53,537 bases of DNA from a virus: positions 1-53,537 of the IMG/VR virus record IMGVR_UViG_3300025304_000001; one strand, written 5' to 3'. Below, piece after piece: positions 1,124 through 50,985 of the stretch (positions are counted from its first letter, which is position 1; each line of letters opens with the position of its first letter). The notes under the pieces are model-generated. The model was not told where the DNA came from, made no database searches, and saw only the letters and a program-made list of their open reading frames with translations. The position numbers and the translations under genes were made by a program.

Positions 1124-1677
1124 CCGACATCAAAAACCCACCGCCCCAGCCGAAAATGACGGCCAAGTTTTCAGATTGCAAAACCTACCGGTATCTGTTC
1201 GGCCGCGTCTGGGACGAAAGCCGCAGGATCCTGCCCGTGGTGATGCTGAACCCGTCGCGCGCCGACGCCGACCGCAACGACCCGACCGTGACGACACTCA
1301 TCCATTTCGCGGGGCTCTGGGGTTACGGCGGGCTGGCCGGCGCCAACCTTGCCGCCCTCGTCACCTCGAAGCCGGCGGTGATGATGGCGCATCCGGACCC
1401 GATCGGACCGGAGAATGACCAGCACATCGCGCAGCTCTTCAATCTTGCTCGCCATACCGGCACACCGGTGCTGGCTGCCTGGGGTAATGGCGGCAGGTTT
1501 CGCGGCCGTGATGAATGGTGCACCTCGCGCGCTCGCGCCGCCTTCGTCGATCTCGTCTGCCTCGGCATCACCAAAGACGGCTTTCCCAAACATCCGGCCG
1601 CCCGAGGCACGCATCGCATCCCGCGCGATCAGCAGCCGATTGTTTGGAAATCATGGCGGGAAACGGGAGAACAATGA
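1120..1677 (+). CDS. DUF1643-family protein
   Basis: The N-terminal signature C-x-TYRYLFGRVW...PVVMLNPSRADADRNDPT is typical of DUF1643. The start forms an ATGA overlap with the upstream gene. Confidence 0.6.
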   Translation: MTDIKNPPPQPKMTAKFSDCKTYRYLFGRVWDESRRILPVVMLNPSRADADRNDPTVTTLIHFAGLWGYGGLAGANLAALVTSKPAVMMAHPDPIGPENDQHIAQLFNLARHTGTPVLAAWGNGGRFRGRDEWCTSRARAAFVDLVCLGITKDGFPKHPAARGTHRIPRDQQPIVWKSWRETGEQ

Positions 1678-1783
1678 GCCTGTTGCATGCCCGCCTCCCC
1701 TGTCCGTCAAACGGTCATTTTCCGGTTCAAATGAATAGCGTCCGGCAAGATTGCGAATCGACGGGAAATCGGAAACATTCCAA

Positions 1784-1799
1784 CGTTATCGAAATAACG
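1784..1799. promoter_or_regulatory. 16-bp palindrome CGTTAT-CGAA-ATAACG, 16 nt upstream of the resolvase start. Candidate res or autoregulatory site.
   Basis: Perfect 6-4-6 inverted repeat read directly from the sequence. A looser CCGT-CAA-ACGG dyad lies about 80 bp further upstream. Confidence 0.3.
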
Positions 1800-1814
1800 G
1801 ATGATTCGTACGCC

Positions 1815-2435
1815 ATGGCTTTGATCGGATATGTCAGGGTCTCGACTGAGGACCAGGACACTACCTTACAACGGGACGCGCTCACCCGCGCGGGCTGCGA
1901 CAGGATTTTCTCGGATGTCGCTTCGGGCGCCAAGTCCGATCGCCCCGGCTTGACCGAGGCGATGAACTACCTGCGCGCCGGCGACACCTTCGTGGTCTGG
2001 AAATTCGACCGCGCCGGACGATCGCTGAAGCACCTGGTTGAGATGGTCGCCGAGCTGGAGGCGAAGAAGGTCGGTTTCAAATCGCTGACCGAGGAGATTG
2101 ACACCACGACTTCCAACGGCCGGCTCTTCTTTCATCTCTTCGGCGCCTTTGCCCAGTTCGAGCGGGACCTGATCAGCGAGCGCACGCGCGCCGGTTTGAT
2201 CGCGGCAAGCGAACAGGGCCGCAAGGGCGGCCGCAAGCCGGTCGTGGACGCGGATAAGCTGAAGCGGGCGAAACAGTTGATAACGAGCGGACTGAACGTG
2301 AAGGAAGCCGCCGGCCGTATCAAGGTCGGCAAGTCCGCTCTTTATGAAGCACTCAAGGCCGAGCGTGGCGGTGCGCCGCTTCTCCCGGCTGTTTTGGGAA
2401 ACACGAGGACCACAAGTGAAACAATAGGGGCATAA
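1815..2435 (+). CDS. Small serine recombinase (resolvase/invertase family)
   Basis: The N-terminus MALIGYVRVSTEDQ carries the catalytic Ser. The resolvase core (FVVWKFDRAGRS, FAQFERDLISERT) and a C-terminal HTH are present. The long N-terminal extension in the ORF track is not needed. Confidence 0.9.
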   Translation: MALIGYVRVSTEDQDTTLQRDALTRAGCDRIFSDVASGAKSDRPGLTEAMNYLRAGDTFVVWKFDRAGRSLKHLVEMVAELEAKKVGFKSLTEEIDTTTSNGRLFFHLFGAFAQFERDLISERTRAGLIAASEQGRKGGRKPVVDADKLKRAKQLITSGLNVKEAAGRIKVGKSALYEALKAERGGAPLLPAVLGNTRTTSETIGA

Positions 2436-2441
2436 AGTAAA

Positions 2442-2471
2442 AGCCCTGCCTTTGGCGAGGCAGGGCTTTTT
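2442..2471 (+). terminator. Rho-independent terminator ending the rightward early operon
   Basis: A 9-bp stem (AGCCCTGCC / GGCAGGGCT) with an 8-nt loop, followed by TTTTT. Confidence 0.8.
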
Positions 2472-2484
2472 GGCAGACAGGCAA

Positions 2485-2523
2485 ACTATGTTGGCACCGT
2501 CCTAAGAACACACCCAACATAGT
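2485..2523. repeat. 10-bp perfect inverted repeat (ACTATGTTGG / CCAACATAGT) with a 19-bp spacer, upstream of the rep-like gene
   Basis: Read directly from the sequence. It is followed at 2540-2563 by a hairpin containing GAGTC and GACTC (GANTC sites). Confidence 0.5.
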
Positions 2524-2618
2524 CCACAGATTTTAAACCCGCAAGAGTCACGACTCGCGGGAATGCAGATTCTTTGCCTGGAGTCCATGCCCTTCCGACC
2601 AGGAAGGAAATAGGAACC

Positions 2619-3347
2619 ATGTTCAAGCAGCTTGGTACCGCGTTGGCGTACGCGCCGACGAGGTCGAGGCGTACCCATGCGCCAGTGCATCGCAACTCTC
2701 GCCTTGCCGGCCAGTGCGAGGGAGCTTTCTGGCGCCGCACGACGCGCAAGGATAGCCGGCGGATCCTACTCGCCGCCCGGCGGTATGAGATCGCCAACAA
2801 GGCAGCCGGTTCGCGTAATGGCCCGCTTGGGGCTATCGGCATCGAGGTGCTGGAGCTGCTAGTAAACCTGGTCGACTACAGGACCGGCCGGCTAGAGCCG
2901 TCGATCGATACGATGATGACCAAGCTCCGCCGCTCCCGTGATGCGATCGTCCGGGGCCTCAAAGCGCTGCGGCAGCATGGCTTTGTTGATTGGTTGCGCC
3001 GATATGTCCCGACTGAGACCGAGGGCGACAAGGGTCCGCAGGTGAAGCAGACGAGCAATGCCTATCGTCTCGCACTCCCCGGCAAGGCTGAAGCATGCCT
3101 CGGGCGATACGGTGAAACCCCTCCCCGGCCGGAGGATTGCGATCAGGCGTTGGAGGAACGTCAGGCAATGGTCGACGCCTTTGCCAAGGCTGATATCGTC
3201 CGCGTCGATCAGCTCGCGCTTGCGTTCGAACACGAGAATCCAGTGGTGCGGAAGCTCGCGGAAATGAGAAGGAAAATGTTTAAGCAACGTGAGTCCGCCG
3301 GACGGACTGAATCCCCGCTAGATAATTTATATAAGAGAGAAGAATGA
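2619..3347 (+). CDS. Putative plasmid-type replication initiator (winged-helix protein)
   Basis: AGGAA sits before the ATG. The central segment GPLGAIGIEVLELLVNLVDYRTGRLEPSIDTMMTKLRRSRDAIVRGLKALRQHGFVDW looks like a wHTH initiator. The gene lies next to the resolvase and par genes. No search was done. Confidence 0.45.
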   Translation: MFKQLGTALAYAPTRSRRTHAPVHRNSRLAGQCEGAFWRRTTRKDSRRILLAARRYEIANKAAGSRNGPLGAIGIEVLELLVNLVDYRTGRLEPSIDTMMTKLRRSRDAIVRGLKALRQHGFVDWLRRYVPTETEGDKGPQVKQTSNAYRLALPGKAEACLGRYGETPPRPEDCDQALEERQAMVDAFAKADIVRVDQLALAFEHENPVVRKLAEMRRKMFKQRESAGRTESPLDNLYKREE

Positions 3348-3413
3348 GCGGACGCCGCTTACAGCGGTCGCTTTCGCTCCCGCGCGGCGGGCCTTCCGGG
3401 CGAGCGGCGTCAA

Positions 3414-3438
3414 AAAAGGTCCAAAGTTGAGACCTTTT
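3414..3438. terminator. Hairpin terminator after the rep-like gene
   Basis: Stem AAAAGGTC / GACCTTTT with a 9-nt loop, followed by T-rich sequence. Confidence 0.5.
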
Positions 3439-3528
3439 GTTGGCCTCGCATGGGCTCTTGAGAGGGAGCCTGGGGCAAAGGGAGCGGAAACTATTCCTAC
3501 GAAGGCGAAATGGCGAAGGCCATGGCCC

Positions 3529-3571
3529 TTGACATATACAGCGTATACTCCAATATCGTATACAGCGTATA
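3529..3571 (+). promoter_or_regulatory. Sigma70-like promoter with two copies of a 13-bp palindromic operator (TATACAGCGTATA) upstream of the PadR gene
   Basis: TTGACA lies at 3529-3534. The operator copies are at 3535-3547 and 3559-3571 (TATAC-N3-GTATA), spaced 24 bp apart. One sits in the promoter spacer and one near +1. Confidence 0.6.
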
Positions 3572-3586
3572 TGTGAGGATCGTACC

Positions 3587-3895
3587 GTGATAGGCAAATT
3601 TGAGGAAATCGCCCTCGGCGCCCTGATCAAGGCCGGACCGGATGCGAACGCGTCCAGAGTGTTCGAGGTGCTGGAAATGACGCTGGAAAAGCCGCCGCTT
3701 TTCGCGGCGCTTTATACGACGCTCGATCGGATGGTCACAAAAAAATTGGTTTCCGAGAGGCCTGAAGAGACGCCGGGCAAGCGCACGAAGCGGTTGTTCA
3801 CGATCACGGGTGAAGGACGCCGCGCCTATGCAGAAGCTGTGAACGCGACGAACGCGATTGCCGCTTTCAATCCGGGAGGTGCGATCCATGCCTGA
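3587..3895 (+). CDS. PadR-family transcriptional regulator
   Basis: GTG start. About 100 aa of winged helix with YTTLDRMVTKKLV...RLFTITGEGRRAY, which is typical of PadR. Confidence 0.75.
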   Translation: MIGKFEEIALGALIKAGPDANASRVFEVLEMTLEKPPLFAALYTTLDRMVTKKLVSERPEETPGKRTKRLFTITGEGRRAYAEAVNATNAIAAFNPGGAIHA

Positions 3896-4409
3896 TAAAG
3901 AAACGGACTACGAAGCTTTTGTCAGGGTTCTGAAAGCATCTCGCAATTCGGATTGTGGAGCTGACGTTGTCATCAAAAACAAGTCTGGCGAATACGTCTA
4001 TCAGGTGAAGTATTCCGCCAAAAACGGCAAGTCGCGTCCGTTGATCCTTACTCGCAAGCAGTGGGATAATTCGTTTTCCGGCCGTGAAATCATTGATGCA
4101 ATGAAACGTGCCGAAGCGGTTGATGACATCGATGGAGATACTTCGCACGGAGACAGCTTGGTTGTGCCGGTCGCTTTTGAGGTAAGCCCACCGGCGGCGC
4201 CTTCTGGGTTCATAGTATCGCTCCTGACTGACCCGGACAAAGCCGAGGACTTCCTTGCGAATTTGGAGGAGTTTCATTTCCCCCGCTGGGTCAAGAGGCA
4301 CGGTGAACTCGGCGCCAGGGCGATATGGCATGCTCAGTGCGTCATTCGTGTGTGGGATCACTGGGTGACAAAGGCAGCGAAACTCCTCCCCTGGGCAAAA
4401 CTGCTCTGA
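3888..4409 (+). CDS. Hypothetical protein with a possible PD-(D/E)xK (Mrr-like) N-terminal domain and a PadR-partner-type C-terminal helix
   Basis: GGGAGG lies before the ATG, and the start overlaps the PadR stop. Segments seen: YEAFVRVL...GADVVIKNKSGEYVYQVKY (E..D..QxK pattern) and the C-terminal FLANLEEFHFPRWVKRHGELGARAIWHAQCV. GC content is visibly lower than in the flanking DNA. Confidence 0.55.
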   Translation: MPDKETDYEAFVRVLKASRNSDCGADVVIKNKSGEYVYQVKYSAKNGKSRPLILTRKQWDNSFSGREIIDAMKRAEAVDDIDGDTSHGDSLVVPVAFEVSPPAAPSGFIVSLLTDPDKAEDFLANLEEFHFPRWVKRHGELGARAIWHAQCVIRVWDHWVTKAAKLLPWAKLL

Positions 4410-4433
4410 GGAGCGCAGCTTCGACGCGCTTTG

Positions 4434-4680
4434 ATGCGTCAAGATTGACGCGCGTTGACGATAAAGCCCGCGTCCGGATGCCACCGCGTGAGCATCATCG
4501 GAACACGGCGACGGGAGAGGAGTTCCGTCGCAGCCCCCTGCCCTTTCGTCAGTAGGACCGGCAGGGATGTTCGCCAAGAAAGCGGCTGGCGAGGTATGCC
4601 AAATTACCTCATCCCAGAAGACACAATGACACAACCTCTTGCGCCGCGCGTGCACATGCGTCAAGATTGACGCGCGTCAA
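4434..4680. repeat. Centromere-like (parS) array. It has two 22-bp direct repeats plus many TTGACGC/GCGTCAA heptads upstream of parA.
   Basis: ATGCGTCAAGATTGACGCGCGT occurs at 4434-4455 and at 4656-4677. A perfect 14-bp palindrome, TTGACGCGCGTCAA, lies at 4667-4680. Degenerate heptads extend from about 4415 to 4780. Confidence 0.6.
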
Positions 4681-4792
4681 CGAGGACGCACGCGCGTCCT
4701 TTTTGATGCAACTGCGGCCACGCATCTTAACGCAACGGCAAGCATTATCGTTGATCATGACGCTTTAACGTGCAGCAACAAGGAAGCCGCCG

Positions 4793-5467
4793 ATGCCAGT
4801 AATAGCCGTTGCCAATCCCAAGGGCGGCGCGGGCAAGTCCACGACGACGCTTGTCCTAGCCACCACGCTCGCCCGGCAGGGCGCCAGCGTCACAATACTC
4901 GACTGCGATCGCAACCAGCCAATCGCGGGATGGAGGGCAGGGGGGTCGCAAAATCCTGTCGTCGTCGACAGCGCCACGGATGAGGAGACATTCAAGGAAA
5001 AGCTCGACGCCCATCGCCGCGAGCGGCAATTCGTCTTCGTCGACCTTGAAGGCACCGCAAGCCGGCTGATGTCGCGCGCTCTGTTTCGCGCTCACCTGGT
5101 GATCATTCCGATCCAGGCGAGCCCTACGGATGCTGAACTTGCGGCACGGGCGATCCACCTGATCAAGGACGAGGGCGACGCGTTTGACAAGCTCATTCCC
5201 TACCGTGTGCTTTTCACCCGCACCTCGCCGCAGATCACCACCAAGCTGGAACGGGCTATTCTGGCGCAGCTTCAGGCGGGGGACATACCGCAGTTCTCGG
5301 CGCATCTGAATGAGCGCTCGGCCTTCAAAAGCATGTTCTATCATCAACTCGATCTAGATGAACTTGATCCGGCCGACGTCAACGGACTACCGCAAGCGCG
5401 CGAAAACGCGCTGCGCCTCACGGGTGAACTCGTCAATATCGTCGTGGAAAAGGGAGTGGCCGCATGA
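4793..5467 (+). CDS. parA: ParA-family partition ATPase (small, type Ib-like)
   Basis: Deviant Walker A motif ([11 protein letters not shown]). The protein is 224 aa with no N-terminal HTH. Confidence 0.9.
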
Positions 5468-5757
5468 CCGGAAAAAATCTAGGCTTTGCCGACAAACTTG
5501 CAGCGATCAAGCCGGACACGGAACAGGAACGCGTCGTTCCCGATCACAAAATCGACGAGGTCGCGGAAAAGCACGGCTTCGTCGCCCGAGATCCGGTTCA
5601 GAAGATAGTGCGCCGGAAAGAGGCGGAACCGTCCGCGAACCTGAACATCCGCCCGCCGGTCTCGACCTATAATCGTTTCGTCAGTTGGGCGATGGAAGAG
5701 CGGTTGAGCTATCCGGAAGCCCTGAAGGAGCTGATGGACAGGGCGGGGGTGCGTTGA
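5464..5757 (+). CDS. ParG/ribbon-helix-helix-type centromere-binding protein (ParB functional analog)
   Basis: ATGA overlap with parA. The protein is 97 aa, and the C-terminal [32 protein letters not shown] looks like an RHH fold. Confidence 0.6.
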
Positions 5758-5790
5758 CGCAGATGCGTTAACGCAAATGAACGCAAGCGC
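5751..5790. repeat. Second cluster of TTGACGC-type heptads at the 3' end of the par operon
   Basis: The sequence GCGTTGACGCAGATGCGTTAACGCAAATGAACGC contains the heptads TTGACGC, TTAACGC and TGAACGC. Confidence 0.45.
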
Positions 5791-5813
5791 CTCTCAGGCA
5801 CCGGCTCAACCGT

Positions 5814-5825
5814 ATATTGCAATAT
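5814..5825. promoter_or_regulatory. Perfect 12-bp palindrome ATATTGCAATAT upstream of a low-GC two-gene cassette
   Basis: Read directly from the sequence. It lies about 75 nt upstream of the ATG at 5901. Confidence 0.35.
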
Positions 5826-5900
5826 GTCTCGACGCCAGAACCCATCTCAGGATAGATATGACCATGATGGGAAAGGTTGAGCAGGCTGAGGGCAGGGGAA

Positions 5901-6137
5901 ATGGCCAAAAAATCTATGTCGGAGATAGCAGCTGAACTTGAGCGCGAGCGGATAAAAGAAGGCGGCGCCATAGATTACGATGATTTGCGTAAGCATCTGA
6001 CCGACAATGCTTACCTCTATTACATTCATCACCGCGTCGGCTGGTCGAACAACTACCTTAAAGAGATCCGAAACACAGGCTATGTATTGGTCGTGCTGGT
6101 GACGGGGATCGCGGCGAAGCTCTACGGCATCCTGTGA
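5901..6137 (+). CDS. Hypothetical small protein with a C-terminal transmembrane anchor
   Basis: A G-rich RBS precedes the ATG. The C-terminus is hydrophobic (GYVLVVLVTGIAAKLYGIL). GC content is low compared with the rest of the window. Confidence 0.45.
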   Translation: MAKKSMSEIAAELERERIKEGGAIDYDDLRKHLTDNAYLYYIHHRVGWSNNYLKEIRNTGYVLVVLVTGIAAKLYGIL

Positions 6138-6138
6138 C

Positions 6139-6432
6139 ATGGTTGCACTGTACGAGCCACGTTACCAATGGAAACGGACGCAGATCGACGACAATGATCC
6201 GCCGACTGATCTGGACTGGATAGGCCTCGACAGCACGGATTATATCGGCCGGATCAGGAAAGAAACCAACGGTCCGACAAAGGGTAAATGGCAATGGGCA
6301 GGGTCATATCCACGGACTCACAAAGGTAGCCCGCCGATCCCCAATACAGGGTGGGTTGATACCGCTCGCATCGCAACGCAGAAGGTTGAGGAATACTGGG
6401 ATCGCGCCAAGCAGGTGATGACGCCAAGATGA
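6139..6432 (+). CDS. Hypothetical protein
   Basis: It starts 1 nt after the upstream stop (TGACATG). Amino-acid composition is protein-like (KGKWQWAGSYP...). A bidirectional terminator follows. Confidence 0.5.
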   Translation: MVALYEPRYQWKRTQIDDNDPPTDLDWIGLDSTDYIGRIRKETNGPTKGKWQWAGSYPRTHKGSPPIPNTGWVDTARIATQKVEEYWDRAKQVMTPR

Positions 6433-6450
6433 TCCTTGGCAAAACGCAAA

Positions 6451-6476
6451 AAGCCGCCCCGTCTCCGGAGCGGCTT
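6451..6476. terminator. Bidirectional rho-independent terminator
   Basis: Stem AAGCCGC...GCGGCTT. A T-run follows on the plus strand. On the minus strand, TTTTTGCGTTTT follows, downstream of the lysis operon. Confidence 0.75.
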
Positions 6477-6495
6477 TCTTGTTATCAAACGAGGA

Positions 6496-6849
6496 TCATC
6501 CGCGCTTGCTGCGAATGATCTCTTCCTTCAGCGAAGAGAGCCCGTGAGTGACTTCCTTCAACGCGTCAGTCAGATCTTCAACCGCGCGCTCCATCGATTT
6601 CCGATAGTTCAGATTTTCGGCCGCACCATCGTCGATCGACGCGCAGAGTGCTTTTACCGAGCCCTCCAGTGCCTTAACAGCCGCGCTATCTACGAGCGCC
6701 CCGGCCACCTCGATGGAGCCAGCCATACTATTCGCTGCCCCACGCCGCCCATCCCGGCCTGCCTTGAACCCGAGCCCTGCGGCAAGGCCTACAACAAGAA
6801 TAACGATGGCATTGGCGATCTTTTCATAATCCAGCGCCGCCCAGTCCAT
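6496..6849 (-). CDS. Membrane-anchored coiled-coil protein, the last gene of the lysis cluster
   Basis: N-terminal TM segment (IANAIVILVVGLAAGLGF). The start overlaps the upstream stop (TAATG). Confidence 0.55.
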   Translation of the reverse strand: MDWAALDYEKIANAIVILVVGLAAGLGFKAGRDGRRGAANSMAGSIEVAGALVDSAAVKALEGSVKALCASIDDGAAENLNYRKSMERAVEDLTDALKEVTHGLSSLKEEIIRSKRG

Positions 6850-8968: not shown

Positions 8969-9808
8969 CTAGCCGAGAGGAAGGTTGGCCGGCTTCGGAT
9001 CTTTCCCGTCGAGGATGATGACCTCCCCGACGTCTTTCCCGGTTCCGCCCCTGACCGTGTAGGTGAGGCCGACCGATATCATAGGGAATGCCGAGAACAC
9101 CTCGCGGACGCCGGGGCAGTCGTTGAGCGAAATGATGAAACGGCCCTTGATTGTGGCGAGCCGTTCGGCCATGGCGCCGAAGGTCTCCCGCGAGAAGGCG
9201 TCTTTCCCGTAATCCCCCTCGTTTCCGTAGTAAGGCGGATCGAGATAGAAGAGGGTTTCGGGCCGGTCATACCGCCCGATGAAATCCGACCAGTCGAGGT
9301 TTTCGATCACCACGCCCGTCAGGCGCTCGTGTACTTCCTCAAGGATGATGCCAAGGCGGGCGAGATTGAACCGGGCAGAACCCGTCGTGTCGACGCCGAA
9401 GCTGCGGCCGACGATCTTGCCGCCGAAAGCCAGCCGCTGGAGGTACAGGAACCGTGCGGCCCTTTCGAGATCCGTAAGGGTGGAAGGGTCGGTTGCAGCT
9501 AGGCGTTCAAACTCCCGCCGGGACGTGAGCTGGAACTTCATTACCTCCATGAACTGGGGATAGTGCCGCTGCAATATCCGAAAGAGCGTGGCGACGTCAC
9601 CGGAACGATCGTTGATCACCTCGCTCTTTGGAACGAGGCTCCGACGAAAGAAGACGCCGCCCATTCCAACGAAGGGCTCCGCATAAATGCTATGCGGGAT
9701 CTGCTCAAGGATGGACGCAACGCGCTGGGCGAGCTGCTTCTTACCACCGAGGTAAGCCGCAGGCGGGGACACCGGCCGAACGGCGGTGAAATGAAAAAAG
9801 TCATGCAT
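8969..9808 (-). CDS. dam: DNA adenine methyltransferase (D12 class, Dam-like)
   Basis: Motif I (EPFVGMGGVFF) and motif IV (YLDPPYY), at the typical length of about 280 aa. Confidence 0.85.
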   Translation of the reverse strand: MHDFFHFTAVRPVSPPAAYLGGKKQLAQRVASILEQIPHSIYAEPFVGMGGVFFRRSLVPKSEVINDRSGDVATLFRILQRHYPQFMEVMKFQLTSRREFERLAATDPSTLTDLERAARFLYLQRLAFGGKIVGRSFGVDTTGSARFNLARLGIILEEVHERLTGVVIENLDWSDFIGRYDRPETLFYLDPPYYGNEGDYGKDAFSRETFGAMAERLATIKGRFIISLNDCPGVREVFSAFPMISVGLTYTVRGGTGKDVGEVIILDGKDPKPANLPLG

Positions 9809-10022: not shown

Positions 10023-11189
10023 TCAGTTTTCGTCGGTCCGCCCGAAGCGGCGATTATAGTCGGCGAAACTGTCGGCACGGCCGCCGGCCGCTGCGGCATT
10101 GCCGCTGGACGATCCACCCTGTCCGCCGGCCGCCGAGCCCGTCTTGTCCGTCGACGGCTTGCGCTCGTCCTTCCCGGCCCCTCCGGAAGGCTGCTTCAGT
10201 TCCAGTTGGGTTGTCGATCCGCCGGACCGGTCCGCCTGATGATTGACGCCGCTGATCCGGTACATGCCATCGACACCGGGCCGGGCGCCGGTGAGGACAA
10301 AGGTACCCTCGGCCTGCGCCGTGACTTCGAGGTCGAGCGTCACCGACCCTTGTCCGCCTTCGCGCTCACTATTGGCCTTGCGACCTTCGGCGACGGCCTT
10401 GGCCTGCTCCTCATCCGCGACCGTTGTGCGAACCTCGTCGGTGGCGTCGGCATCGACGCCGGTTTCGATCTCGATTTCTTTGAAGCTGGCGGAGGGCCGA
10501 TCGAAATACCGTACCTTTGACTTGGCGAATTTCTCGCGGCCGGCCGTGGGTGCGATATCCCAGTTGATGACATTACCGGTCAGCTCGCCCGGAGGCGGGG
10601 CGATGCCGATGACAGTCGGCAAGGCTTGTCCGGTGGCACTCAGGCCCTGCCCACGCTTGGCAAGGACTGCCTGGTCACCGCGGATCTTGAACGTGCCGCC
10701 CAGCTCCCGAGCCATCTTCTGTCCAAGATGGAGGAAGCTTTCGGAGGTCGCCGACCAGTAGTCCCGCGTGATGTTCGCGAAACTCGGATCGATGACGATG
10801 CCCTTGAGCCCGGCGTTCTTCGCGGCCGTGTCGAGGAACTGCTGAAGCGTCCCGTCATCCATATGATGGGACTGGGGTTCCTTCGCCTTCCCCTTGGCAT
10901 CGAAGCCTTTTGCCGAGACGGACAGCGTCCGGCCGCTCCCGCGTGCGCCTCTGGACCGGACGCTGTCCACCTTGCCGGTAAACGCCGAAATCCCCTGCAG
11001 GTAAACCTGCACGGCCGCCCCTTCCGCCGGCAGCTTAACCTGACCTCCGCTGTCGTCGAATTCGAGGTTACAGGTGTCACTTGCCGAACCGTCCTTGTCC
11101 GAGATCGAGATCTTCATCAGGTAGGGCCGCATGGCGGACGTCAGGTCCACCCCGTCGACGATCACTTTCCATTCGACTGTCCAAGGCAT
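10023..11189 (-). CDS. P2 gpD-like tail protein (late control D family)
   Basis: The N-terminus (KVIVDGVDLT...YLMKISISDKDGSASDTCNLEFDD) and the position after gpU/gpX match gpD. Confidence 0.8.
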   Translation of the reverse strand: MPWTVEWKVIVDGVDLTSAMRPYLMKISISDKDGSASDTCNLEFDDSGGQVKLPAEGAAVQVYLQGISAFTGKVDSVRSRGARGSGRTLSVSAKGFDAKGKAKEPQSHHMDDGTLQQFLDTAAKNAGLKGIVIDPSFANITRDYWSATSESFLHLGQKMARELGGTFKIRGDQAVLAKRGQGLSATGQALPTVIGIAPPPGELTGNVINWDIAPTAGREKFAKSKVRYFDRPSASFKEIEIETGVDADATDEVRTTVADEEQAKAVAEGRKANSEREGGQGSVTLDLEVTAQAEGTFVLTGARPGVDGMYRISGVNHQADRSGGSTTQLELKQPSGGAGKDERKPSTDKTGSAAGGQGGSSSGNAAAAGGRADSFADYNRRFGRTDEN

Positions 11190-34485: not shown

Positions 34486-35151
34486 TCATAGCTTTTCGAG
34501 AAACGCAATGGGCATGTTGTCGACGACGACAAAATTTCCCTCGACCTCTACGCGTACCTTGCCCCTCGGCTCCCGCTTCCATTTCACGCTCATGACGACG
34601 CATTCGAACCCCGAGAACGGCCCGTCCTTCACGCGGCATCTCGATGCCTGTCCGATCGTCCTGTCGACTGGCAAATCGGCGATAACGGGAGCGGAAATAG
34701 GCTTAAAAACAACGACATGCGCATCCGGTATGATGTGGTAGCCGTTCGCCCCGCCCACAAAACCGGATATGTTCTTCTGTTTTCTAACCCCCGCGAACGC
34801 CTCGGCCGAGGGCACAAGGCGCACCAGGAGATATCCCGGAAAGAACGCCCGAAAGCATTCGATCTTCTTCCCGCGCCTGATCTTTTCGACGGTTTCACGC
34901 GGCGCCAGAACTTGAACACCGCAATCGGTTAGAAGCTTTTCCACAGTGAAATCGTGTCCGTGAGCCACCTTCAGGCAGAACCACCGCGCATCTTTCGCCC
35001 GTGATTCGGTGATTTCGATCGAAGCCGCGCGCAGTTCGGCGCGGGCGAGCCGAAGCACTCGTCCTTCGCGGACCTTCCGGCGCTGCTCGATCTCGTCGAG
35101 CGCGACCTGATCATTGTCGATACGAGCAGTAGCCCGTTTACCCCCTGTCAT
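34486..35151 (-). CDS. NusG/RfaH-like transcription antitermination factor (NGN + KOW domains)
   Basis: NGN domain: RWFCLKVAHGHDFTVEKLL...FFPGYLLVRL. KOW domain: RVKDGPFSGFECVVMSV. The start overlaps the 3' end of the O-like gene by 14 nt. Confidence 0.75.
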   Translation of the reverse strand: MTGGKRATARIDNDQVALDEIEQRRKVREGRVLRLARAELRAASIEITESRAKDARWFCLKVAHGHDFTVEKLLTDCGVQVLAPRETVEKIRRGKKIECFRAFFPGYLLVRLVPSAEAFAGVRKQKNISGFVGGANGYHIIPDAHVVVFKPISAPVIADLPVDRTIGQASRCRVKDGPFSGFECVVMSVKWKREPRGKVRVEVEGNFVVVDNMPIAFLEKL

Positions 35152-36418
35152 GGAAAACCTCTTTCGCATGCTGTTCAAAAGCTGAAATTCCCCCCGGCCC
35201 CCCGGCAGGAAACCAGACAACCGGCATGGCGCCGGTATCGGGAAGCCACGGATACACCCAGTCGAAGTGCCATTGCCGCCAGTCTTCCCAGACCTCTGAA
35301 CCGACCGGAACCGGCTCGCACCAAGGCTTCATTGCGGCAAAGCGGGCATCAACTTGCACCGGCCCCTTGCTTGGATCCTGCAGGCGGTTGACCTCGGGAA
35401 AGCCCTCAAGGATGTGCCGGCGCCGCAGTTCCTGTTCTTCGAAATCGTCCGGAAAGATCAGACTGCCGTCAGTGGCGATAAGGAGGCCCTTCGCGGCCGC
35501 GTACCGGTGCGCGCCGGCCAAGCTCGATTTCGCGAGGACCTCGAAGCTCCTGGTCACCGTTTCTCGAAGCCCGTCCGGCACGTCGACGCGGACCGGCCCG
35601 GCGAGCAATGCCATCATGCGGGCCGATGCCCAGGCAGGCCCGAAGATCGGCGCCAGCATCGTCTTGCCCGCCGGCGTCGCGTTCGCGGCCATCAGTGCCG
35701 CGACATCGAGGAATTTCTTCGCCCGCAGATAGATCCCGAGAGAAACCGGCTTTGCGCCGGCAGCGGCAAGGTAATCATCCCGGCGCTGTTCCGCGAGCAA
35801 CCTTTCGGCTGGCGTCAGGTTGGCGAATTGCGTCACCGCCCATCGGGTATCCTTGCCGAGCGATCCCGGCCACGGATTGTTGTGGCGACCGATTTCGAGA
35901 GCCTTCACCCGCTTTTCGAGCGACTTGAAATTTTCTTCCGCATCCTCCTCGGCACGGTCTTCCTCTTGCCGGGTCTCTCGCAGGGGTTTCCTTACAGGTT
36001 CTCTTACAGGATTACTGTCCAGATTCTGGACTCGGCTTTCACCGATTTCTGGACTCGGCTTTTGCCAGTTTTTGGACTCGGCTTCGGCCGATCCGTGTCC
36101 AGTTTCTGGACTCGGCTTTGTAGAAGAGAATTGCGCAAAATGCGCCTCGAAAGGAAAATAATACCGGGTCCGTTCCTGTTTCCGGGAGCCAGGCTTTTTG
36201 CGCTGTTCCCGCGCGATAAGGCCCATTTCCTCCAACTGTTTCAGATAGGTGTTCAGCGCCGAGCGGGAGACGTTGCACATGCCGGCAAGCCGCTCTTGGC
36301 TCGGAAACGCACCGCCGTAATCCGGGTTGTGGCAATCGGCCAACCGCAGCAGAACGATCATCAGGTTGGGCGGAATATCCCGCTGTTCAAAAGCCCAGTT
36401 CGTTGCCTTGTGGCTCAT
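35138..36418 (-). CDS. Phage replication initiator (lambda O-like, N-terminal wHTH)
   Basis: N-terminal segment MIVLLRLADCHNPDYGGAFPSQERLAGMCNVSRSALNTYLKQLEEMGLI. The gene carries four iterons internally. Confidence 0.7.
   Translation of the reverse strand: MSHKATNWAFEQRDIPPNLMIVLLRLADCHNPDYGGAFPSQERLAGMCNVSRSALNTYLKQLEEMGLIAREQRKKPGSRKQERTRYYFPFEAHFAQFSSTKPSPETGHGSAEAESKNWQKPSPEIGESRVQNLDSNPVREPVRKPLRETRQEEDRAEEDAEENFKSLEKRVKALEIGRHNNPWPGSLGKDTRWAVTQFANLTPAERLLAEQRRDDYLAAAGAKPVSLGIYLRAKKFLDVAALMAANATPAGKTMLAPIFGPAWASARMMALLAGPVRVDVPDGLRETVTRSFEVLAKSSLAGAHRYAAAKGLLIATDGSLIFPDDFEEQELRRRHILEGFPEVNRLQDPSKGPVQVDARFAAMKPWCEPVPVGSEVWEDWRQWHFDWVYPWLPDTGAMPVVWFPAGGPGGISAFEQHAKEVFHDRG
36018..36119. 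repeat. Four iterons (lytic-type origin) inside the O-like gene
   Basis: Four copies at 36018, 36042, 36064 and 36098: TCCAGATTCTGGACTCGGCTTT, CCGATTTCTGGACTCGGCTTTT, GCCAGTTTTTGGACTCGGCTTC and TCCAGTTTCTGGACTCGGCTTT. The invariant core is TGGACTCGGCTT. Spacing is 23, 23 and 34 bp. Confidence 0.8.
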
Positions 36419-37389: not shown

Positions 37390-37593
37390 ATGGGAATGGA
37401 CAAACGAGACCGCTTCATCGCTGAAATCAGGGAGGAAGCAAAAGCAGCCGGTCTTTCCTTCCGGCTTAGCAAGTCGAAAGGAAAAGGTGGCCACGCCACG
37501 ATCTGGGTCGGAGACAATTTCACGACCCTTCCCAGCCGGGAGATCGATCCGAAAACGGCCTCGAAAATTCGAAAGACGCTGGGGCTCAAGTGA
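37390..37593 (+). CDS. hicA: HicA-family toxin (mRNA interferase)
   Basis: The protein is 67 aa with KGKGGHATIWVGDNFTTLPSREIDPKTASKIRKTLGL, matching the HicA GSH...T.P...I.K..GL pattern. GGAGA lies before the ATG. Confidence 0.6.
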   Translation: MGMDKRDRFIAEIREEAKAAGLSFRLSKSKGKGGHATIWVGDNFTTLPSREIDPKTASKIRKTLGLK

Positions 37594-37627
37594 GCCCCAG
37601 CAATGCCCGCTCCAAGTAAAAGACCTC

Positions 37628-37663
37628 TAGAACCCCCTGAATGCCCCTTAGAACCAACTGAAT
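37628..37663 (+). repeat. Two 15-bp direct repeats (TAGAACCNNCTGAAT) in the hicA-hicB spacer
   Basis: TAGAACCCCCTGAAT lies at 37628-37642 and TAGAACCAACTGAAT at 37649-37663. Confidence 0.6.
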
Positions 37664-37694
37664 CAAACCCAATTGAACTCAAGGATCGGAACCC

Positions 37695-38123
37695 ATGAAA
37701 ACCTACAGCTATGCTGCTGTCTTCGAGCCGACCGAACGTGAAGGCGGTTTCACCGTCAGCTTTCCGGACGTTCCGCAGGCCATTACCGAAGGCGAGGATA
37801 TGGCCGACGCGCGCGCACAGGCGGAAGACGCCCTTGGTGTCGCCCTGCTGACCCTTCTGGAAATGGGGCGCGCCCTTCCCGAGCCGGTTACCGCCGGCAC
37901 GATGATCGCGCCCGCCCCTGAGATCGCCATGAAGATCGCGGTCATCGAAACCTTCCGCGCCTCGGGCCTGTCCCGCACGGAACTGGCGCGACGCCTCGGC
38001 AAGGACGAGAAGGAAGCAAGACGCCTTCTGGATCCGGACACGCCCACGAAACTGCCGCTGATGAACAGCGCACTGGCCGCAATGGGCCAGCGCCTGGTCA
38101 TTGGTCTGGAGGCCGCGGAATAG
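37695..38123 (+). CDS. hicB: HicB-family antitoxin (HicB N-domain + HTH)
   Basis: N-terminal segment YSYAAVFEPTEREGGFTVSFPDVPQAITEGEDMADARAQAEDAL. The C-terminal segment LSRTELARRLGKDEKEARRLLDP looks like an HTH. Confidence 0.75.
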   Translation: MKTYSYAAVFEPTEREGGFTVSFPDVPQAITEGEDMADARAQAEDALGVALLTLLEMGRALPEPVTAGTMIAPAPEIAMKIAVIETFRASGLSRTELARRLGKDEKEARRLLDPDTPTKLPLMNSALAAMGQRLVIGLEAAE

Positions 38124-38128
38124 CTCGC

Positions 38129-40048
38129 TCATGCTGCAACCCTTTCCCGGTCGACGGCAAGGTGGTTGCAGTTGGCTGCCACCAGCGCTTTCGCCACGGG
38201 CGGGCAGACGCTGTTCCCGACGCATGACACCTGCACGGATTTCGAGAATGGTACCCAGAGCGGTCCGCCGTTATGGCCGATCTTTGCCCGATGATAGAAT
38301 CCCTCGATCTTATAGTCGGGCGGAAAACCCTGCGCGTTGAACAGCTCGCGCGGGGTCAGCATGCGCATGCCGATATCGACAATGACGAACGTCATGCCGT
38401 TGACCTCGACAGTCACGAACTCGCGCTCATCCCAGAGGCCATTCGCCCGCATGAAGTCGGCCACCTGCCGCGCCCGCGCCGCCTGCGCTTCCGTGAAGGG
38501 CGGCACGTCGACGATAGCCTCGATATGGGCATGACGCTGCTTGACGGTCGCTGTGCGCATCGCCTCGTCTTCGCGCGAGCCCTCCCCGGTTCTGAAGTAC
38601 GATTGCAGGTAGGGCATGATGAGCTGACTCTTACCCTGCCCGTCAGCCATCGTGGTCGCTAACGGCTGATCAACAGGATGGCCGGTCGACGTGCCGAACT
38701 GCCGGGCGATGTAGGCCGAGGCAACCTGCTGGTGGCTACCGGTTTGCGTGATCGTCGAGATTGCTTCGTCCATGGGGCGGCCGGGATTGACCCCGCCGAT
38801 GCGCCGGCTGTCGCTGTTGGCCTGCGCCATCCATGCACACATGACGGAATTCTGGTCCTTGTCGCTGGCTGTGATCGTCTGCGCCTGTCCATCCACCGGA
38901 CGGTTCGCGCCACCTTGCTGTGCATAGGTCAGCACTGGAGCCAAAAGGCCGAGTGGCGCAGCCCCACCAGGGCGCTTGATGAAACTGTTCGCGGTGATCG
39001 TCGGCATTTGGCCTCGCATATCGCCACCGGTGGCACCGGTGTTGAAACGCTGGATGGACGGCGAGATCAGCGCCTTTTCGCCCCGATGGGCAGCCGTGAT
39101 CACCCTTGCCGGTTCATCAATACTCTCGGTGCGGCCGCCATGGGTGAGGTTGACCAGGAACGGACGGTTCGCGTGAATAACGAACCGATCGAGCCCCCGC
39201 GCAATCCGGGCGTGCGAGGCGACCGCCAGCGGCCGAACCGCCCGCACGCCGTGCTTGGCCCAGATCTCCTCCGCCGTATCGAAGATCGACGGGCAAGGGA
39301 TGCTCCAGTCGATACAGTCGGCGACGATGGGCCATGGCAACTTGCGGCCGGCGATAACGTCGGCATCGTCCGGGCTGCCGTGTGTCGGCTGCGGCCAGAC
39401 GATTTTCTGTCCGTCGAATCGCATGATGATGAACAGCCGCTTGCGGATCGTCGGCGCGCCATAGTCGCGGCCGCGCAGCTCCCGCATCTCGATCTTGGCG
39501 CCGAGGTTGCGCAGCTTGCGGCACCATTTCTGGAACGTCTCGCCCTTGCGGTCGGGATCCGGCATCTCCCCCTTGGCCGTCGTGATCAGCGGCCCGTAAT
39601 CCTTGAACTCTTCAACATTCTCCATGATCACGACGTCGACCTTGCCGCCGCTGCTCTGGATACGCTCGATCCAGCCGGGAATGATCCAGCAGAGATCGCG
39701 GATGTTGCGCGCCACCGGCTTACCGCCCTTGGCCTTGGAGAAATGCTTGCAGTCCGGCGAGAACCAGGCGAGCCCGATATGCTTGCCGCGCAGATGGTCG
39801 AGGGGGTCGATCCGATAGACGTTCTCCGAAAGGTGGATCGTCTCCGGATGGTTGACCTCGTGCAGCGCCAGAGCGTCCGCATCGTGGTTGATGGCATAGT
39901 CGGGCGACCGGCCGAGGGCCTGCTCTATCCCTGTCGATGCCCCGCCACCGCCGGCAAAGCTGTCGATGATGATCGGCCGGCCGGGATCGGAGGTGAGAAG
40001 CGTCGAGGCCGCGAGCGCCGTCAGGAGTGAGGCTTGGTGCATATTCAT
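38129..40048 (-). CDS. DNA (cytosine-5)-methyltransferase (large, about 639 aa)
   Basis: Motif I DSFAGGGG, motif IV FSPDCKHFS, motif VI MENVEEF, and the late motifs QGFPPDY and GNSVCPPV. Confidence 0.9.
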   Translation of the reverse strand: MNMHQASLLTALAASTLLTSDPGRPIIIDSFAGGGGASTGIEQALGRSPDYAINHDADALALHEVNHPETIHLSENVYRIDPLDHLRGKHIGLAWFSPDCKHFSKAKGGKPVARNIRDLCWIIPGWIERIQSSGGKVDVVIMENVEEFKDYGPLITTAKGEMPDPDRKGETFQKWCRKLRNLGAKIEMRELRGRDYGAPTIRKRLFIIMRFDGQKIVWPQPTHGSPDDADVIAGRKLPWPIVADCIDWSIPCPSIFDTAEEIWAKHGVRAVRPLAVASHARIARGLDRFVIHANRPFLVNLTHGGRTESIDEPARVITAAHRGEKALISPSIQRFNTGATGGDMRGQMPTITANSFIKRPGGAAPLGLLAPVLTYAQQGGANRPVDGQAQTITASDKDQNSVMCAWMAQANSDSRRIGGVNPGRPMDEAISTITQTGSHQQVASAYIARQFGTSTGHPVDQPLATTMADGQGKSQLIMPYLQSYFRTGEGSREDEAMRTATVKQRHAHIEAIVDVPPFTEAQAARARQVADFMRANGLWDEREFVTVEVNGMTFVIVDIGMRMLTPRELFNAQGFPPDYKIEGFYHRAKIGHNGGPLWVPFSKSVQVSCVGNSVCPPVAKALVAANCNHLAVDRERVAA

Positions 40049-41625
40049 GCCGCACCGCCTTTCACCGCGCCGTCGTCCCGCAGATGGCCGTCGTTTTCGA
40101 TCTGATCGAAGAGATGCACCGCCGGCGCCCATTGCATGCCAAGGCGTTCCTGCAGAAGCGCGACATTGAAATCACCGCCCTCCCCCAGGATTTCGAGCGC
40201 CCGCCGATACAGCACCACATGCCGCCCTTGCCGCCCCGGTTCGCTCGCGGGCGAGATCAGTCCGGCCGCGACGAACTCCGCAATGATCGCCTCGACCGTG
40301 CTGTCGCGCCGGCCAATGCCCCTGCATAGTTCCGCACGGTCGAAGTCGTCCCGCTGTAGCACCCATGCGCGGGCGTCTTCGCGATCGCGGTCGACCCGCT
40401 CGTGAAGCTCCAGTTTCGGAGTTGTGCGCGGCGCGTCTTCAAAGGAAATGCCAAGGGCATTACCGCCCTCGCCCGGCTCCAGCGCCTCGGCGTCGATATA
40501 GTCCTTCCAGTCGATCCGGCGCATGATCGTCGTGTTGCCGTAGGTACCGTCTTCCTGCCGTTCCCAGACCACCCACGCGGTATTCATGCGACTGGAGGCT
40601 TTCGGCCCGTCGTAACCCTCGCGGTGCATCATCGGGAGGCGCCGCTTAAAGACGTAGATCCGCGCGGGCGGGCATTCGTCCATGACAAAATTGCGATCCT
40701 CGTCCGCAAAGCCTGCCAGGACGTTCAGATTCAGCAGAAGCGCCAGTTTGCGGGGCTTGTAGACGCGCAAGGCGTGCGCGATGAACGCGTTCAACGACTC
40801 GCCATAGGGCGGGTTGGTGACGATATCCGGCCCCTCCCCCTCGACTTCTGGCCTGCTCAGCAGAAAGTCGCCGACAGCTTGCACCGTACCGGCCTCGGAG
40901 ATCGTCCCACGATCTTCGATATCGGAGAGGACGACGTCATAGCCCCGTGCCTCGAAGACGCGGCCGATGGCATTGAAGCCGCAGGCGGGCTCAAGAATTG
41001 TCGGCGTAAAACTCTCGTGAGCAAGAAGCGCGATCGTTGCGACATCGGGAGTCTGATAGAAGTTTTTGCCGCGATCTTCCTTGGATGCCGAGGCCGTACC
41101 GACCGCCGCGCGAAGATTGCTGCGGCTCGGCACGCCGCCGTCGGTCCGCGTTTCTGCGATGCGCCGGCGGATCACACCCGGCTCATTCCTCTCCGCGTCG
41201 CGCAATTTGCGCGCGACGAGGATGCGTCGCTTGTCGATGCCAATATCTTCAAGCCGTAAAAGGTCCTCGCCCACGACCTTTTTGGGACGCCCGCGCATTG
41301 CAACGAAACCGGCGCGTTGCGCCTGGTCGAATTCGTTCGCGAGCGCGACCAGGGCATAGCTTTCGATCTCCAGCGCCTCGTCGATCATCGCGCCGACGCG
41401 CGCGATGACTTCCTCGCCGGCCTTCATTCGCTTGGCGAAACCTTGCGCAGCCTTCGCCTCGTCATAGGCCGCACCGGAAATCATCAACGCCTTCTGCATG
41501 TCTCCGGCGCCAAACAGGTGTTTCGCCTGCGCAAGCTTCGCGGCGAGCGAGGTCGTATTGAAGCGATCGAGAGCGACAGTGCCGACAACCGGTTGTGGAT
41601 CAGGGAGAGCAAGGGCCGCCATCAT
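40045..41625 (-). CDS. SAM-dependent DNA methyltransferase (NPPY type) with N- and C-terminal extensions
   Basis: Motifs seen: YQTPDVATIALL...ILEPACGFNAIG and DIVTNPPYG. ATGA coupling to the C5-methyltransferase gene. Confidence 0.7.
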   Translation of the reverse strand: MMAALALPDPQPVVGTVALDRFNTTSLAAKLAQAKHLFGAGDMQKALMISGAAYDEAKAAQGFAKRMKAGEEVIARVGAMIDEALEIESYALVALANEFDQAQRAGFVAMRGRPKKVVGEDLLRLEDIGIDKRRILVARKLRDAERNEPGVIRRRIAETRTDGGVPSRSNLRAAVGTASASKEDRGKNFYQTPDVATIALLAHESFTPTILEPACGFNAIGRVFEARGYDVVLSDIEDRGTISEAGTVQAVGDFLLSRPEVEGEGPDIVTNPPYGESLNAFIAHALRVYKPRKLALLLNLNVLAGFADEDRNFVMDECPPARIYVFKRRLPMMHREGYDGPKASSRMNTAWVVWERQEDGTYGNTTIMRRIDWKDYIDAEALEPGEGGNALGISFEDAPRTTPKLELHERVDRDREDARAWVLQRDDFDRAELCRGIGRRDSTVEAIIAEFVAAGLISPASEPGRQGRHVVLYRRALEILGEGGDFNVALLQERLGMQWAPAVHLFDQIENDGHLRDDGAVKGGAA

Positions 41626-42686: not shown

Positions 42687-42905
42687 TCAGCATTTGGGGC
42701 CTCCACCATCGGTTCCGTAGAGATCCGGCCGCAGCCTGTAGCGGGAAACGCCAGTCAGCTTTTCAACAGCAAGAACACGCTTAGGCGGCACAACATCCCA
42801 TTGCCATACCGCTTGTGGGGACACGCCGACTTCGCGAGCGATAGCGGTGATGCTGCGCCCCTCCCTCGCCTCTTCCCACGCCTGCTTCGCTGTCAAATCC
42901 GTCAT
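42687..42905 (-). CDS. Cro/YdaS-like HTH regulator
   Basis: The segment SITAIAREVGVSPQAVWQWDVVPPKRVLAVEKLTGVSRYRLRPDLY is present. The gene is divergent from the repressor gene. Confidence 0.8.
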   Translation of the reverse strand: MTDLTAKQAWEEAREGRSITAIAREVGVSPQAVWQWDVVPPKRVLAVEKLTGVSRYRLRPDLYGTDGGGPKC

Positions 42906-42952
42906 GCGCCGATGAAAAGCATATCTTTGGCGAATCATCAAGGGATACTTTA

Positions 42953-50629: not shown

Positions 50630-50985
50630 TGACCACCAAAAACACACCACCCTCATCGCAAATGGCGGTGATTGCAGAGCAGATGGATGCCGCCAGGGAC
50701 ATCGGTACACTGCTTGCGCAGATCGATGGGCTGCAGGAAGCGACCGGCGAAAAGCTCGATATCGAAGACGCCGCCATCGTCGCGCAGATCCGCGAGGCGT
50801 GGGGCGGCATCGTCTCAGGTCCGAACGGACCTGTCACCGGCAACCACCTTCGCGAAATCCTCGGCATAGACCCGGAAGACGGCCTTGATCCGGATGGCGA
50901 GGGAAGCATCCAGACATGCGCCGGCATGTGGGTGAAGGAAGCGACAACTGGCCTTTGGGTGTTCGAGGAAGACGAAGATGACTGA
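50629..50985 (+). CDS. Hypothetical acidic protein
   Basis: The start overlaps the upstream stop (TGATGA). Confidence 0.5.
   Translation: MTTKNTPPSSQMAVIAEQMDAARDIGTLLAQIDGLQEATGEKLDIEDAAIVAQIREAWGGIVSGPNGPVTGNHLREILGIDPEDGLDPDGEGSIQTCAGMWVKEATTGLWVFEEDEDD

Follow-up and report, generated by a model that had tools for sequence, protein, structure and literature searches.

Introduction

Bacteriophage P1 is maintained in its lysogens without an integrase. It relies on an iteron-type plasmid Rep, active partition, resolution of dimers by a recombinase and an addiction module, and it has a separate replicon for lytic growth. Phage-plasmids are common and can transfer genes in two ways, in viral form and in plasmid form; to our knowledge, few are known from plant-associated Alphaproteobacteria. 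The subject of this study is a 53,537-bp stretch of viral DNA with a G+C content of ~60% (IMG/VR record IMGVR_UViG_3300025304_000001, positions 1 to 53,537; hereafter the window), which carries plasmid-type replication and partition genes among those of a tailed phage. The window is probably the complete circular genome of a temperate tailed phage of the Rhizobiaceae whose lysogenic form is a circular plasmid of low copy number, and persistence as a plasmid in the lysogen is the most likely state of this exact element.

The phage-plasmid concept has been reviewed (Pfeifer et al. 2021, PMC7969092). Plasmid-like prophages described from the Rhizobiaceae, Sinorhizobium pLM21S1 and Rhizobium phage RHEph10, are ~117 kb long and have a RepC-like (repABC-type) replicon (PMC5537653, PMC7969092). 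Small plasmids of the pTAR/pAgK84/pAMI2 family represent a different replicon type: Rhizobium, Agrobacterium and Sinorhizobium all support the replication of pAMI2 mini-derivatives (PMC3925955), and a 15-kb plasmid of Rhizobium sp. NT-26 has a pTAR-type replicon with repA, parA and a regulator (PMC3673622). No description of the lineage to which the window belongs was found in the searchable literature.

Results

A plasmid maintenance backbone within a phage genome

The predicted maintenance backbone, of the pTAR/pAgK84/pAMI2 type, is bordered by the end of the CI-side operon on one side and by the lysis cassette on the other (Table 1). Autonomous plasmids have homologous backbones that match the block gene by gene and in order, and the succession of resolvase, rep, parA and a small partner gene is common to the window and to these small plasmids. 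In pAMI2 and in the 9.3-kb plasmid pAtCFBP4996c, the order is resolvase, copG, rep, parA, parG/B and toxin-antitoxin, with no second rep gene, and in pAgK84 it is repA, orf, parA. The Rep protein of the window shares 56% sequence identity with RepA of pAgK84, 61% with Rep of pAtCFBP4996c and 53% with that of pAMI2, in each case with more than 84% of the protein covered, and several of its homologues carry the name 'replication protein A'. Homologues of Rep are found in 194 plasmids of PLSDB, many of which are alphaproteobacterial and 9–50 kb in size. The Rep of the 15-kb NT-26 plasmid is 51% identical to that of the window, and the published work on this plasmid and on pAMI2 supports a replication function for the family.

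The window also encodes a complete set of temperate-phage functions, comprising packaging, head, tail, lysis and a lysogeny switch, with no visible truncation. Genes for a lambda-type head (GpA terminase, portal_2, ClpP protease, HDPD decoration protein and cap_E capsid) are accompanied by genes for a P2-type tail (tube, sheath and baseplate) and an amidase. An original prediction, made from the same DNA without database searches, had named complete head, tail, lysis and CI/Cro modules in this lambda-head, P2-tail combination, together with a 206-aa resolvase-type serine recombinase and a winged-helix Rep-like gene. All of these were found, with a significant Pfam match for the recombinase and a confident winged-helix core in the Rep model. 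The phage-plasmid lifestyle that it derived from them is supported by the homology and gene order of the plasmid backbone, the lack of an integrase and the circular or plasmid relatives described below. The same prediction placed a ParA and a ribbon-helix-helix, ParG-like protein among centromere-like repeats. The ATPase, with its KGGAGKST motif, and the repeats were borne out, and the ribbon-helix-helix fold was seen only as a resemblance of the model, with matches that are not significant. Its gene list needs one correction, as genes for a PadR-family regulator and a 173-aa protein (ORF173) are found between rep and parA.

Table 1. Predicted features of the maintenance block and related modules in the window (positions are those of the 53,537-bp stretch)
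Feature	Position	Strand	Basis
Candidate res site	1701-1799	.	Imperfect palindrome TGTCCGTCAAACGGTCA (1701-1717) and CGTTATCGAAATAACG (1784-1799); putative function
Small serine recombinase, resolvase type, 206 aa	1815-2435	+	PF00239, E=1e-46
Terminator-like hairpin (2440-2472), then conserved rep leader (2473-2618)	2440-2618	+	Comparative alignment
Plasmid-type replication initiator RepA, pTAR/pAgK84/pAMI2 family	2619-3347 (ORF from 2574)	+	Homology, winged-helix model
Conserved GC-rich non-coding block, candidate oriV or Rep-binding region	3348-3475	.	Conservation; putative function
Accessory cassette: operator-like repeat, PadR regulator, 173-aa ORF	3535-4409	+	Pfam, repeat search, gene calls
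Upstream centromere/operator-like TTRACGCR half-site clusters	4434-4734 (4435-4452, 4657-4734)	.	Motif counts
ParF-like (type Ib) Walker partition ATPase ParA, 224 aa	4793-5467	+	KGGAGKST at residues 10-17; ParF match
Small ParG-like partner, 97 aa	5464-5757	+	AlphaFold model; gene overlaps parA stop codon
Downstream cluster of TTRACGCR half-sites	5750-5785	.	TGCGTTGACGCA, TGCGTTAACGCA
Second, phage-type (O-like) replication initiator	35138-36418	-	phrog_270, E=3e-30; HTH_36
HicB-like antitoxin (37695-38123) and upstream 65-aa ORF (37396-37593)	37396-38123	+	PF15919, E=1e-7
Lysogeny switch: Cro-like (42687-42905), CI-like XRE repressor (42953-43684)	42687-43684	- (Cro-like), + (CI-like)	P22_Cro/YdaS and HTH_3 matches

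Genome ends and circularity

Both ends of the window carry an exact 127-bp direct repeat (1–127 and 53,411–53,537). This repeat is an assembly overlap, the signature of a circular path at k=127, and the real molecule is therefore 53,410 bp long. A 299-aa open reading frame (ORF) spans the circle junction, and the ORF at 7–624 is the C-terminal portion of it.

The proteins of the exact element were found on 10–11 metagenome contigs. These come from several samples of JGI, ENA and Logan, JGI 3300005515 and ENA ERZ27252035 among them, and at least three assemblies give the element as a circle. The break points vary among these contigs, with lengths of 53,328 bp, 53,551 bp (53,410 plus k141) and 53,537 bp (53,410 plus k127), which shows that the molecule is circular or circularly permuted. 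No host genes or flanks were found beside the partner gene, the terminase or the CI neighbourhoods in the contigs of the exact element, and the gene order is always the same circular one. Integrated copies in host DNA, to which the original prediction had pointed as evidence against a plasmid lifestyle, were accordingly not seen among the 10–11 contigs.

Relatives in cultured isolates and metagenomes

Two relatives from cultured bacteria are circular and lie apart from the chromosome. Plasmid pAtCFBP5507b of Agrobacterium salinitolerans (NZ_CP109971.1) is a closed circular replicon of 46,243 bp in a completely sequenced host, and has the same architecture as the window and no integrase (TerL 77%, ParA 83%, partner 75% and Rep 55% identical). 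Contig18 of Rhizobium sp. LC145, also from an isolate, closes through a 77-bp end overlap into a circle of 49,289 bp (TerL 93%, ParA 89%, partner 86% and Rep 69% identical). As in the window, a lambda-type head, a P2-type tail, an XRE switch and a DUF5131 operon are followed by the resolvase, Rep, ParA and partner genes by the lysis cassette; both elements are smaller, at 46–49 kb versus 53.4 kb. Additionally, the resolvase of pAtCFBP5507b is only 36% identical and is inverted, and DUF2806 and BrnT are found where the window has PadR and ORF173. These closed or circular relatives are more telling for plasmid status than the circularity of the metagenome assemblies. No description of pAtCFBP5507b or of the LC145 contig as a phage-plasmid was found in the searchable literature.

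The block is found in more isolates on element-sized contigs of 38–55 kb (CFBP 8762, SM12, YJ-22, Shinella DSM 18801 and LAD9), and at least 79 IMG/VR contigs encode a terminase 63–93% identical to that of the window. At least 15 related phage contigs have resolvase, Rep, ParA and partner at the same position, beside the D12 methylase and the lysis/tail genes. The individual modules are shuffled among the relatives, with identities of 42–79% for Rep, 31–88% for the resolvase (in either orientation) and 34–90% for ParA, and this shuffling fits the pattern of conserved phage genes and variable plasmid genes described for phage-plasmids (PMC7969092). The closest metagenomic relative, IMGVR_UViG_3300048858_000048 (L146/L242), has structural proteins ~90% identical to those of the window and a Rep of 79%, together with a ParA of only 34% identity, a clean swap of the partition module. 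The close relatives were recovered by a single-protein scan of IMG/VR; an alignment-based DUF5131 scan gave only distant phages. No GenBank phage was matched in a megablast search with positions 1–25,000 of the window. For TerL, the best matches among these phages reach 34% identity, and all of them are to unrelated phages.

The Mesorhizobium element MesoLjLa5 (NZ_AP023261.1) shares a TerL of 73% identity with the window and contains a tyrosine integrase gene (10078–11139) at the position of the block, with no Rep or ParA. The contrast between the two elements supports the proposal that the plasmid block functionally replaces an integrase.

Replication module

The likely true start of rep is the ATG at 2619, which gives a protein of 242 residues and agrees with the independent JGI gene call; a TTG at 2574 is an alternative start. 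Pfam gives weak matches to HTH_36 and LexA_DNA_bind. The AlphaFold model of Rep displays a confident winged-helix core (residues 43–151, pLDDT above 90), which is followed by long C-terminal helices, and sequence and profile searches against PDB sequences gave nothing meaningful. The winged-helix character of Rep is confirmed at the level of the model, and its predicted role in replication rests on family membership.

The rep leader, which follows a terminator-like hairpin, contains a covarying inverted repeat (CTATGTTGG/CCAACATAG), a hairpin formed by CCGCAAGAG...CTCGCGG, and the element GATTCTTTG, as well as the invariant motifs CGCAAGA and GATTYTTTG. The Shine-Dalgarno sequence of rep is covered by a further hairpin, which shows compensatory changes. 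L146 and LC145 have leaders of 88% identity to that of the window, and those of ~10 more relatives and of pAgK84 and pAtCFBP4996c can be aligned with it. In this family of replicons the leader may exert translational or antisense control, and such a structured leader would govern the expression of RepA. No Rfam family was found over the whole window at gathering thresholds, and a search of positions 1500–6500 at E-values up to 1 gave only two matches at chance level. A promoter and terminator scan was uninformative, and overlooked the obvious hairpin.

A conserved GC-rich non-coding block begins right after the rep stop codon. It is 86% identical in L146 and 74% in LC145, and an alignment that includes pAgK84 and pAtCFBP4996c contains 25 invariant columns. 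This block is proposed as a candidate origin or Rep-binding region, such that RepA would initiate theta replication at a conserved cis element adjoining its own gene.

A second initiator gene, of the phage O-like type, contains 23-bp iterons (2.7 copies, 36024–36084) within its coding region, as in a lambda-style origin. Because this initiator with internal iterons is present besides the plasmid Rep, the element has two replicons, like P1. The O-like gene can serve lytic replication, and lytic growth would then use an initiator separate from RepA.

Partition module and centromere-like repeats

ParA belongs to the small ATPases with a deviant Walker A motif, and has no DNA-binding domain at its N-terminus. 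It matches the CbiA, VirC1 and MipZ families of Pfam, and scores 112 bits with the NCBIfam model ParA_partition, below the curated cutoff of 180 bits. The best match among solved structures is ParF of TP228 (PDB code 4dzz; E=2e-17, residues 1–176), and ParA was placed with the type Ib systems because ParF is its closest solved relative by sequence. In type Ib systems, the partner of the ATPase is the ribbon-helix-helix protein ParG. With 83–90% identity, ParA is the best-conserved protein among the relatives.

The 97-aa partner always directly follows this type of ParA in the relatives. No sequence match to it was found in Pfam, NCBIfam or the PDB, including no detectable similarity to ParG. 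Its AlphaFold model (pLDDT 81–94) consists of a flexible N-terminal part, an extended segment (residues 57–64) and two helices (residues 66–78 and 83–93), and looks like a ribbon-helix-helix protein.

The motif TTRACGCR occurs exactly 14 times in the window, and nine of these copies are located within 4435–4734 and 5754–5775 (~330 bp in all), where 0.05 would be expected. All 13 related loci with the same type of ParA (58–90% identity) have the motif on either side of the par operon, with two to six copies upstream and two to four downstream, and it is absent in all three relatives that have a different ParA (34–40% identity) in the same slot. L146, with a different ParA, has other repeats at the par slot (four copies of GAACCGAGT). 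This tracking of the repeats with the ParA type is the strongest evidence for their reading as a candidate centromere. In the proposed mechanism, the ParF-like ATPase and its small, putatively ribbon-helix-helix partner would segregate the copies of the element, the partner would bind the TTRACGCR clusters that flank the operon, and the upstream cluster would probably double as an operator.

Right after the cassette with PadR and ORF173, a 39-nt sequence is duplicated (4434–4472 and 4656–4694, 85% identical), with a 222-bp spacer separating the copies. The duplication suggests that the cassette entered the interval between rep and parA along with a copy of the centromere region. LC145 does not contain the cassette, and the distance between rep and parA is 312 bp there.

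Homologues of ParA and its partner (64–68% identity, with the same flanking motif) were also found on contigs of Xenorhabdus, a gammaproteobacterium and an unexpected host.

Resolvase and candidate res site

The serine recombinase begins with MALIGYVRVSTEDQ. PF00239 spans residues 4–136 of the protein, and the large C-terminal domain of serine integrases is not present; NCBIfam models of large recombinases (XisF and Ccr) score far under their cutoffs. The gene is found directly 5' of rep, as in pAMI2 and pAtCFBP4996c, and its product shares 40–44% identity with the resolvases of these two plasmids. The ~130 bp ahead of the gene are kept in two relatives (L007 and L146) and contain the candidate res site. 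Resolution of multimers is the likely role of the recombinase, which would act at the res site immediately 5' of its own gene. A role as a tail-fibre invertase of the Cin/Gin type is unlikely and was rejected, as the gene is ~14 kb from the tail-fibre genes and occupies the slot of the resolvase of the plasmid relatives.

Absence of integration functions

About 60 plausible ORFs were scanned with Pfam, and selected ones with PHROGs and NCBIfam, plus 10 long antisense shadow ORFs; most of the element is also covered by precomputed Pfam matches on the independent JGI gene calls. None of the ~70 ORFs was recognised as a tyrosine integrase, a large serine recombinase, a DDE transposase or a protelomerase, and no tRNA was detected by ARAGORN. 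A tblastn search with the integrase of MesoLjLa5 gave nothing (E above 2). A dif site of the E. coli type is absent from the window, which is a weak test for Alphaproteobacteria. The original prediction had reported the lack of an integrase and a protelomerase, and had proposed profile searches for these and for transposases; the searches agree with it, and the recombinase hidden among the ORFs that it considered as a counter-indication was found in neither the real nor the shadow ORFs. The features of an N15-type linear phage-plasmid are not seen, as there is no protelomerase family and the element is a circle with varying break points.

Accessory genes

In the cassette between rep and parA, two copies of the operator-like repeat TATACAGCGTATA (3535–3571) precede the PadR-family regulator gene (3587–3895, identified by Pfam), which is followed by ORF173 (3888–4409). 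The HicB-like gene and the 65-aa ORF 5' of it, which has no family match, lie on the opposite strand within a long minus-strand operon. The pair is a possible addiction module, and may kill cells that lose the plasmid. Toxin genes are found inside the plasmid block of relatives, encoding Doc in Rhizobium sp. FKY42 and BrnT in pAtCFBP5507b. In FKY42, a Phd-like/Doc toxin pair is accompanied by copG, Rep, ParA and the partner.

Four genes encode DNA methyltransferase-like proteins (452–1123, 8969–9808, 38129–40132 and 40045–41625; Dam-type, D12 N6-adenine, C5-cytosine and phrog_799 type), which presumably act against restriction. The last of these, a 526-aa protein that resembles the N-terminal part of ParB, was considered as a partition protein and ruled out, since it matches a phage DNA-methyltransferase family; its homologue in pAtCFBP5507b is annotated as a ParB N-terminal domain protein. 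A NusG-like phage protein (34486–35220, minus strand) is encoded upstream of the small and large terminase genes and is kept in pAtCFBP5507b; it may be an antiterminator for the late operon. A 457-aa orphan protein (50978–52351, plus strand) contains zinc-ribbon-like CxxC pairs and low-complexity linkers. It has no recombinase signature, and its homologues are partial and mosaic (14–31% covered) and belong to unrelated proteins.

Discussion

Alternative explanations

Several observations weigh against the phage-plasmid interpretation. Circular assembly is equally expected of virion DNA or replicating phage DNA, and cannot tell a plasmid from either. No iterons were recognised next to rep in a k-mer search. 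A Foldseek search with the Rep model returned only generic winged helices of the MarR/ArsR type and no solved plasmid Rep; the search with the partner model returned ribbon-helix-helix antitoxins on top and ParG (1p94) at rank 4, all with E-values of at least 3.7 and none significant. MesoLjLa5, which carries an integrase and is probably an integrative phage in its excised form, has also been filed as a circular plasmid, of 56.7 kb; it is a warning that a circular 'plasmid' entry says little when taken by itself. The relative in Rhizobium sp. FKY42 (NODE_117, L014) occupies 24.9–45.6 kb of a 169-kb contig, for which integration, a cointegrate or misassembly are candidate explanations. One 67.5-kb contig of the exact element was left out of the inspection of flanks, and several ORFs, such as those of 457, 299 and 275 residues, have no family. 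The ORFs without a family and the 169-kb contig, as well as a head module in common with the integrase-carrying MesoLjLa5, would be expected of an ordinary integrative temperate phage that uses an unrecognised recombinase or the host XerCD and carries the plasmid-like block as cargo from a plasmid. Such a phage is highly improbable here, given that no integrase-like family was found in real or shadow ORFs, no tRNA or att fragment was found, and the E. coli-type dif is absent (a limited test). Moreover, the 10–11 contigs have no host flank, the block fills the exact slot of the MesoLjLa5 integrase, and it is complete, with rep, par, resolvase and the putative cis sites all conserved.

The circular metagenome assemblies also fit free or replicating phage DNA, and the lineage has no isolated phage for comparison, so that the element might be imagined as a lytic or carrier-state phage without true lysogens, in which Rep and Par serve transient persistence or are a decaying relic. 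The CI/Cro switch is difficult to reconcile with this proposal, as are the intact state of all genes of the block, the conservation of ParA ahead of every other protein in the relatives, and the occurrence of relatives in cultured isolates, where they form a closed plasmid or contigs the size of the element; it is considered very unlikely. There is equally little to recommend the converse proposal of a plasmid that bears a defective prophage or a tailocin-like cluster and is not infectious any more. The annotation of pAtCFBP5507b simply as a non-mobilizable plasmid would agree with it, but the packaging, head, tail, lysis, replication and regulation genes form a complete set without visible truncation, window-identical proteins occur in several independent samples, and the terminase is shared by the at least 79 IMG/VR contigs mentioned above. 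The interpretation of the window as a phage-plasmid is preferred over all three of these proposals.

Implications

The phage-plasmid lifestyle is already well known, and the concept itself is unchanged by this finding; the rhizobial lineage appears to be undescribed, and is a new member and probably a new group. On balance, and by a narrow preference, we favor a broader scenario in which a fairly large, undescribed lineage of Rhizobiaceae phage-plasmids exchanges whole small-plasmid backbone cassettes at one fixed slot, which is the integrase slot in relatives that share the virion modules. Each cassette would comprise a resolvase gene, the rep gene and the leader and origin that belong to it, the par genes and their centromeres, and a toxin-antitoxin pair. 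Through the replacement of cassettes, traded between phages and the small plasmids that reside in agrobacteria and rhizobia, the elements would then switch lifestyle (integrated or plasmid) as well as incompatibility or partition type.

Through such a lineage, the virome of Agrobacterium, Rhizobium and Shinella would be connected with their pool of small pTAR/pAgK84-type plasmids, including biocontrol and catabolic plasmids, with consequences for plasmid incompatibility, gene flow and curation, as at least one such element has been filed simply as a plasmid. The lineage would also offer a natural system in which integrase and plasmid-cassette solutions can be compared in otherwise similar phages, and a compact candidate cassette for replication and partition in vector design.

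Comparison with known systems

The window shares the logic of P1, with a plasmid Rep, partition, dimer resolution, a possible addiction module, a separate lytic replicon and no integrase. The parts that carry out these functions are not homologous. The window has a single winged-helix RepA of the pTAR type, a type Ib ParF/ParG-like system in contrast to the type Ia ParA/ParB of P1, and a serine resolvase where P1 has Cre, and the virions are unrelated; families of the Cre, ParB and RepL types are absent from the scans of the window ORFs. The 'P1-like logic' of the original prediction consequently applies to function and does not extend to homology.

The partition module is similar to ParF/ParG of TP228 in its small Walker ATPase, its small partner with a disordered N-terminus followed by a strand and two helices, and its upstream repeats. 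It differs in that the partner has no detectable similarity to ParG and in that repeats are found on both sides of the operon. pLM21S1 and RHEph10 are, like the window, plasmid-like prophages of the Rhizobiaceae, but are ~117 kb long and have a RepC-type replicon, in contrast to the 53 kb and pTAR-type RepA of the window.

The backbone matches that of the pTAR/pAgK84/pAMI2 family, in which Rep is 53–61% identical, the gene order is the same, and the rep leader and the block after rep are both conserved with the window. In these small plasmids, ParA is only 27–33% identical and the partner is a different protein, and a copG ORF that the window does not have is found upstream of rep. Their backbones lie beside mobilisation or catabolic genes, whereas that of the window is contained within a phage genome.

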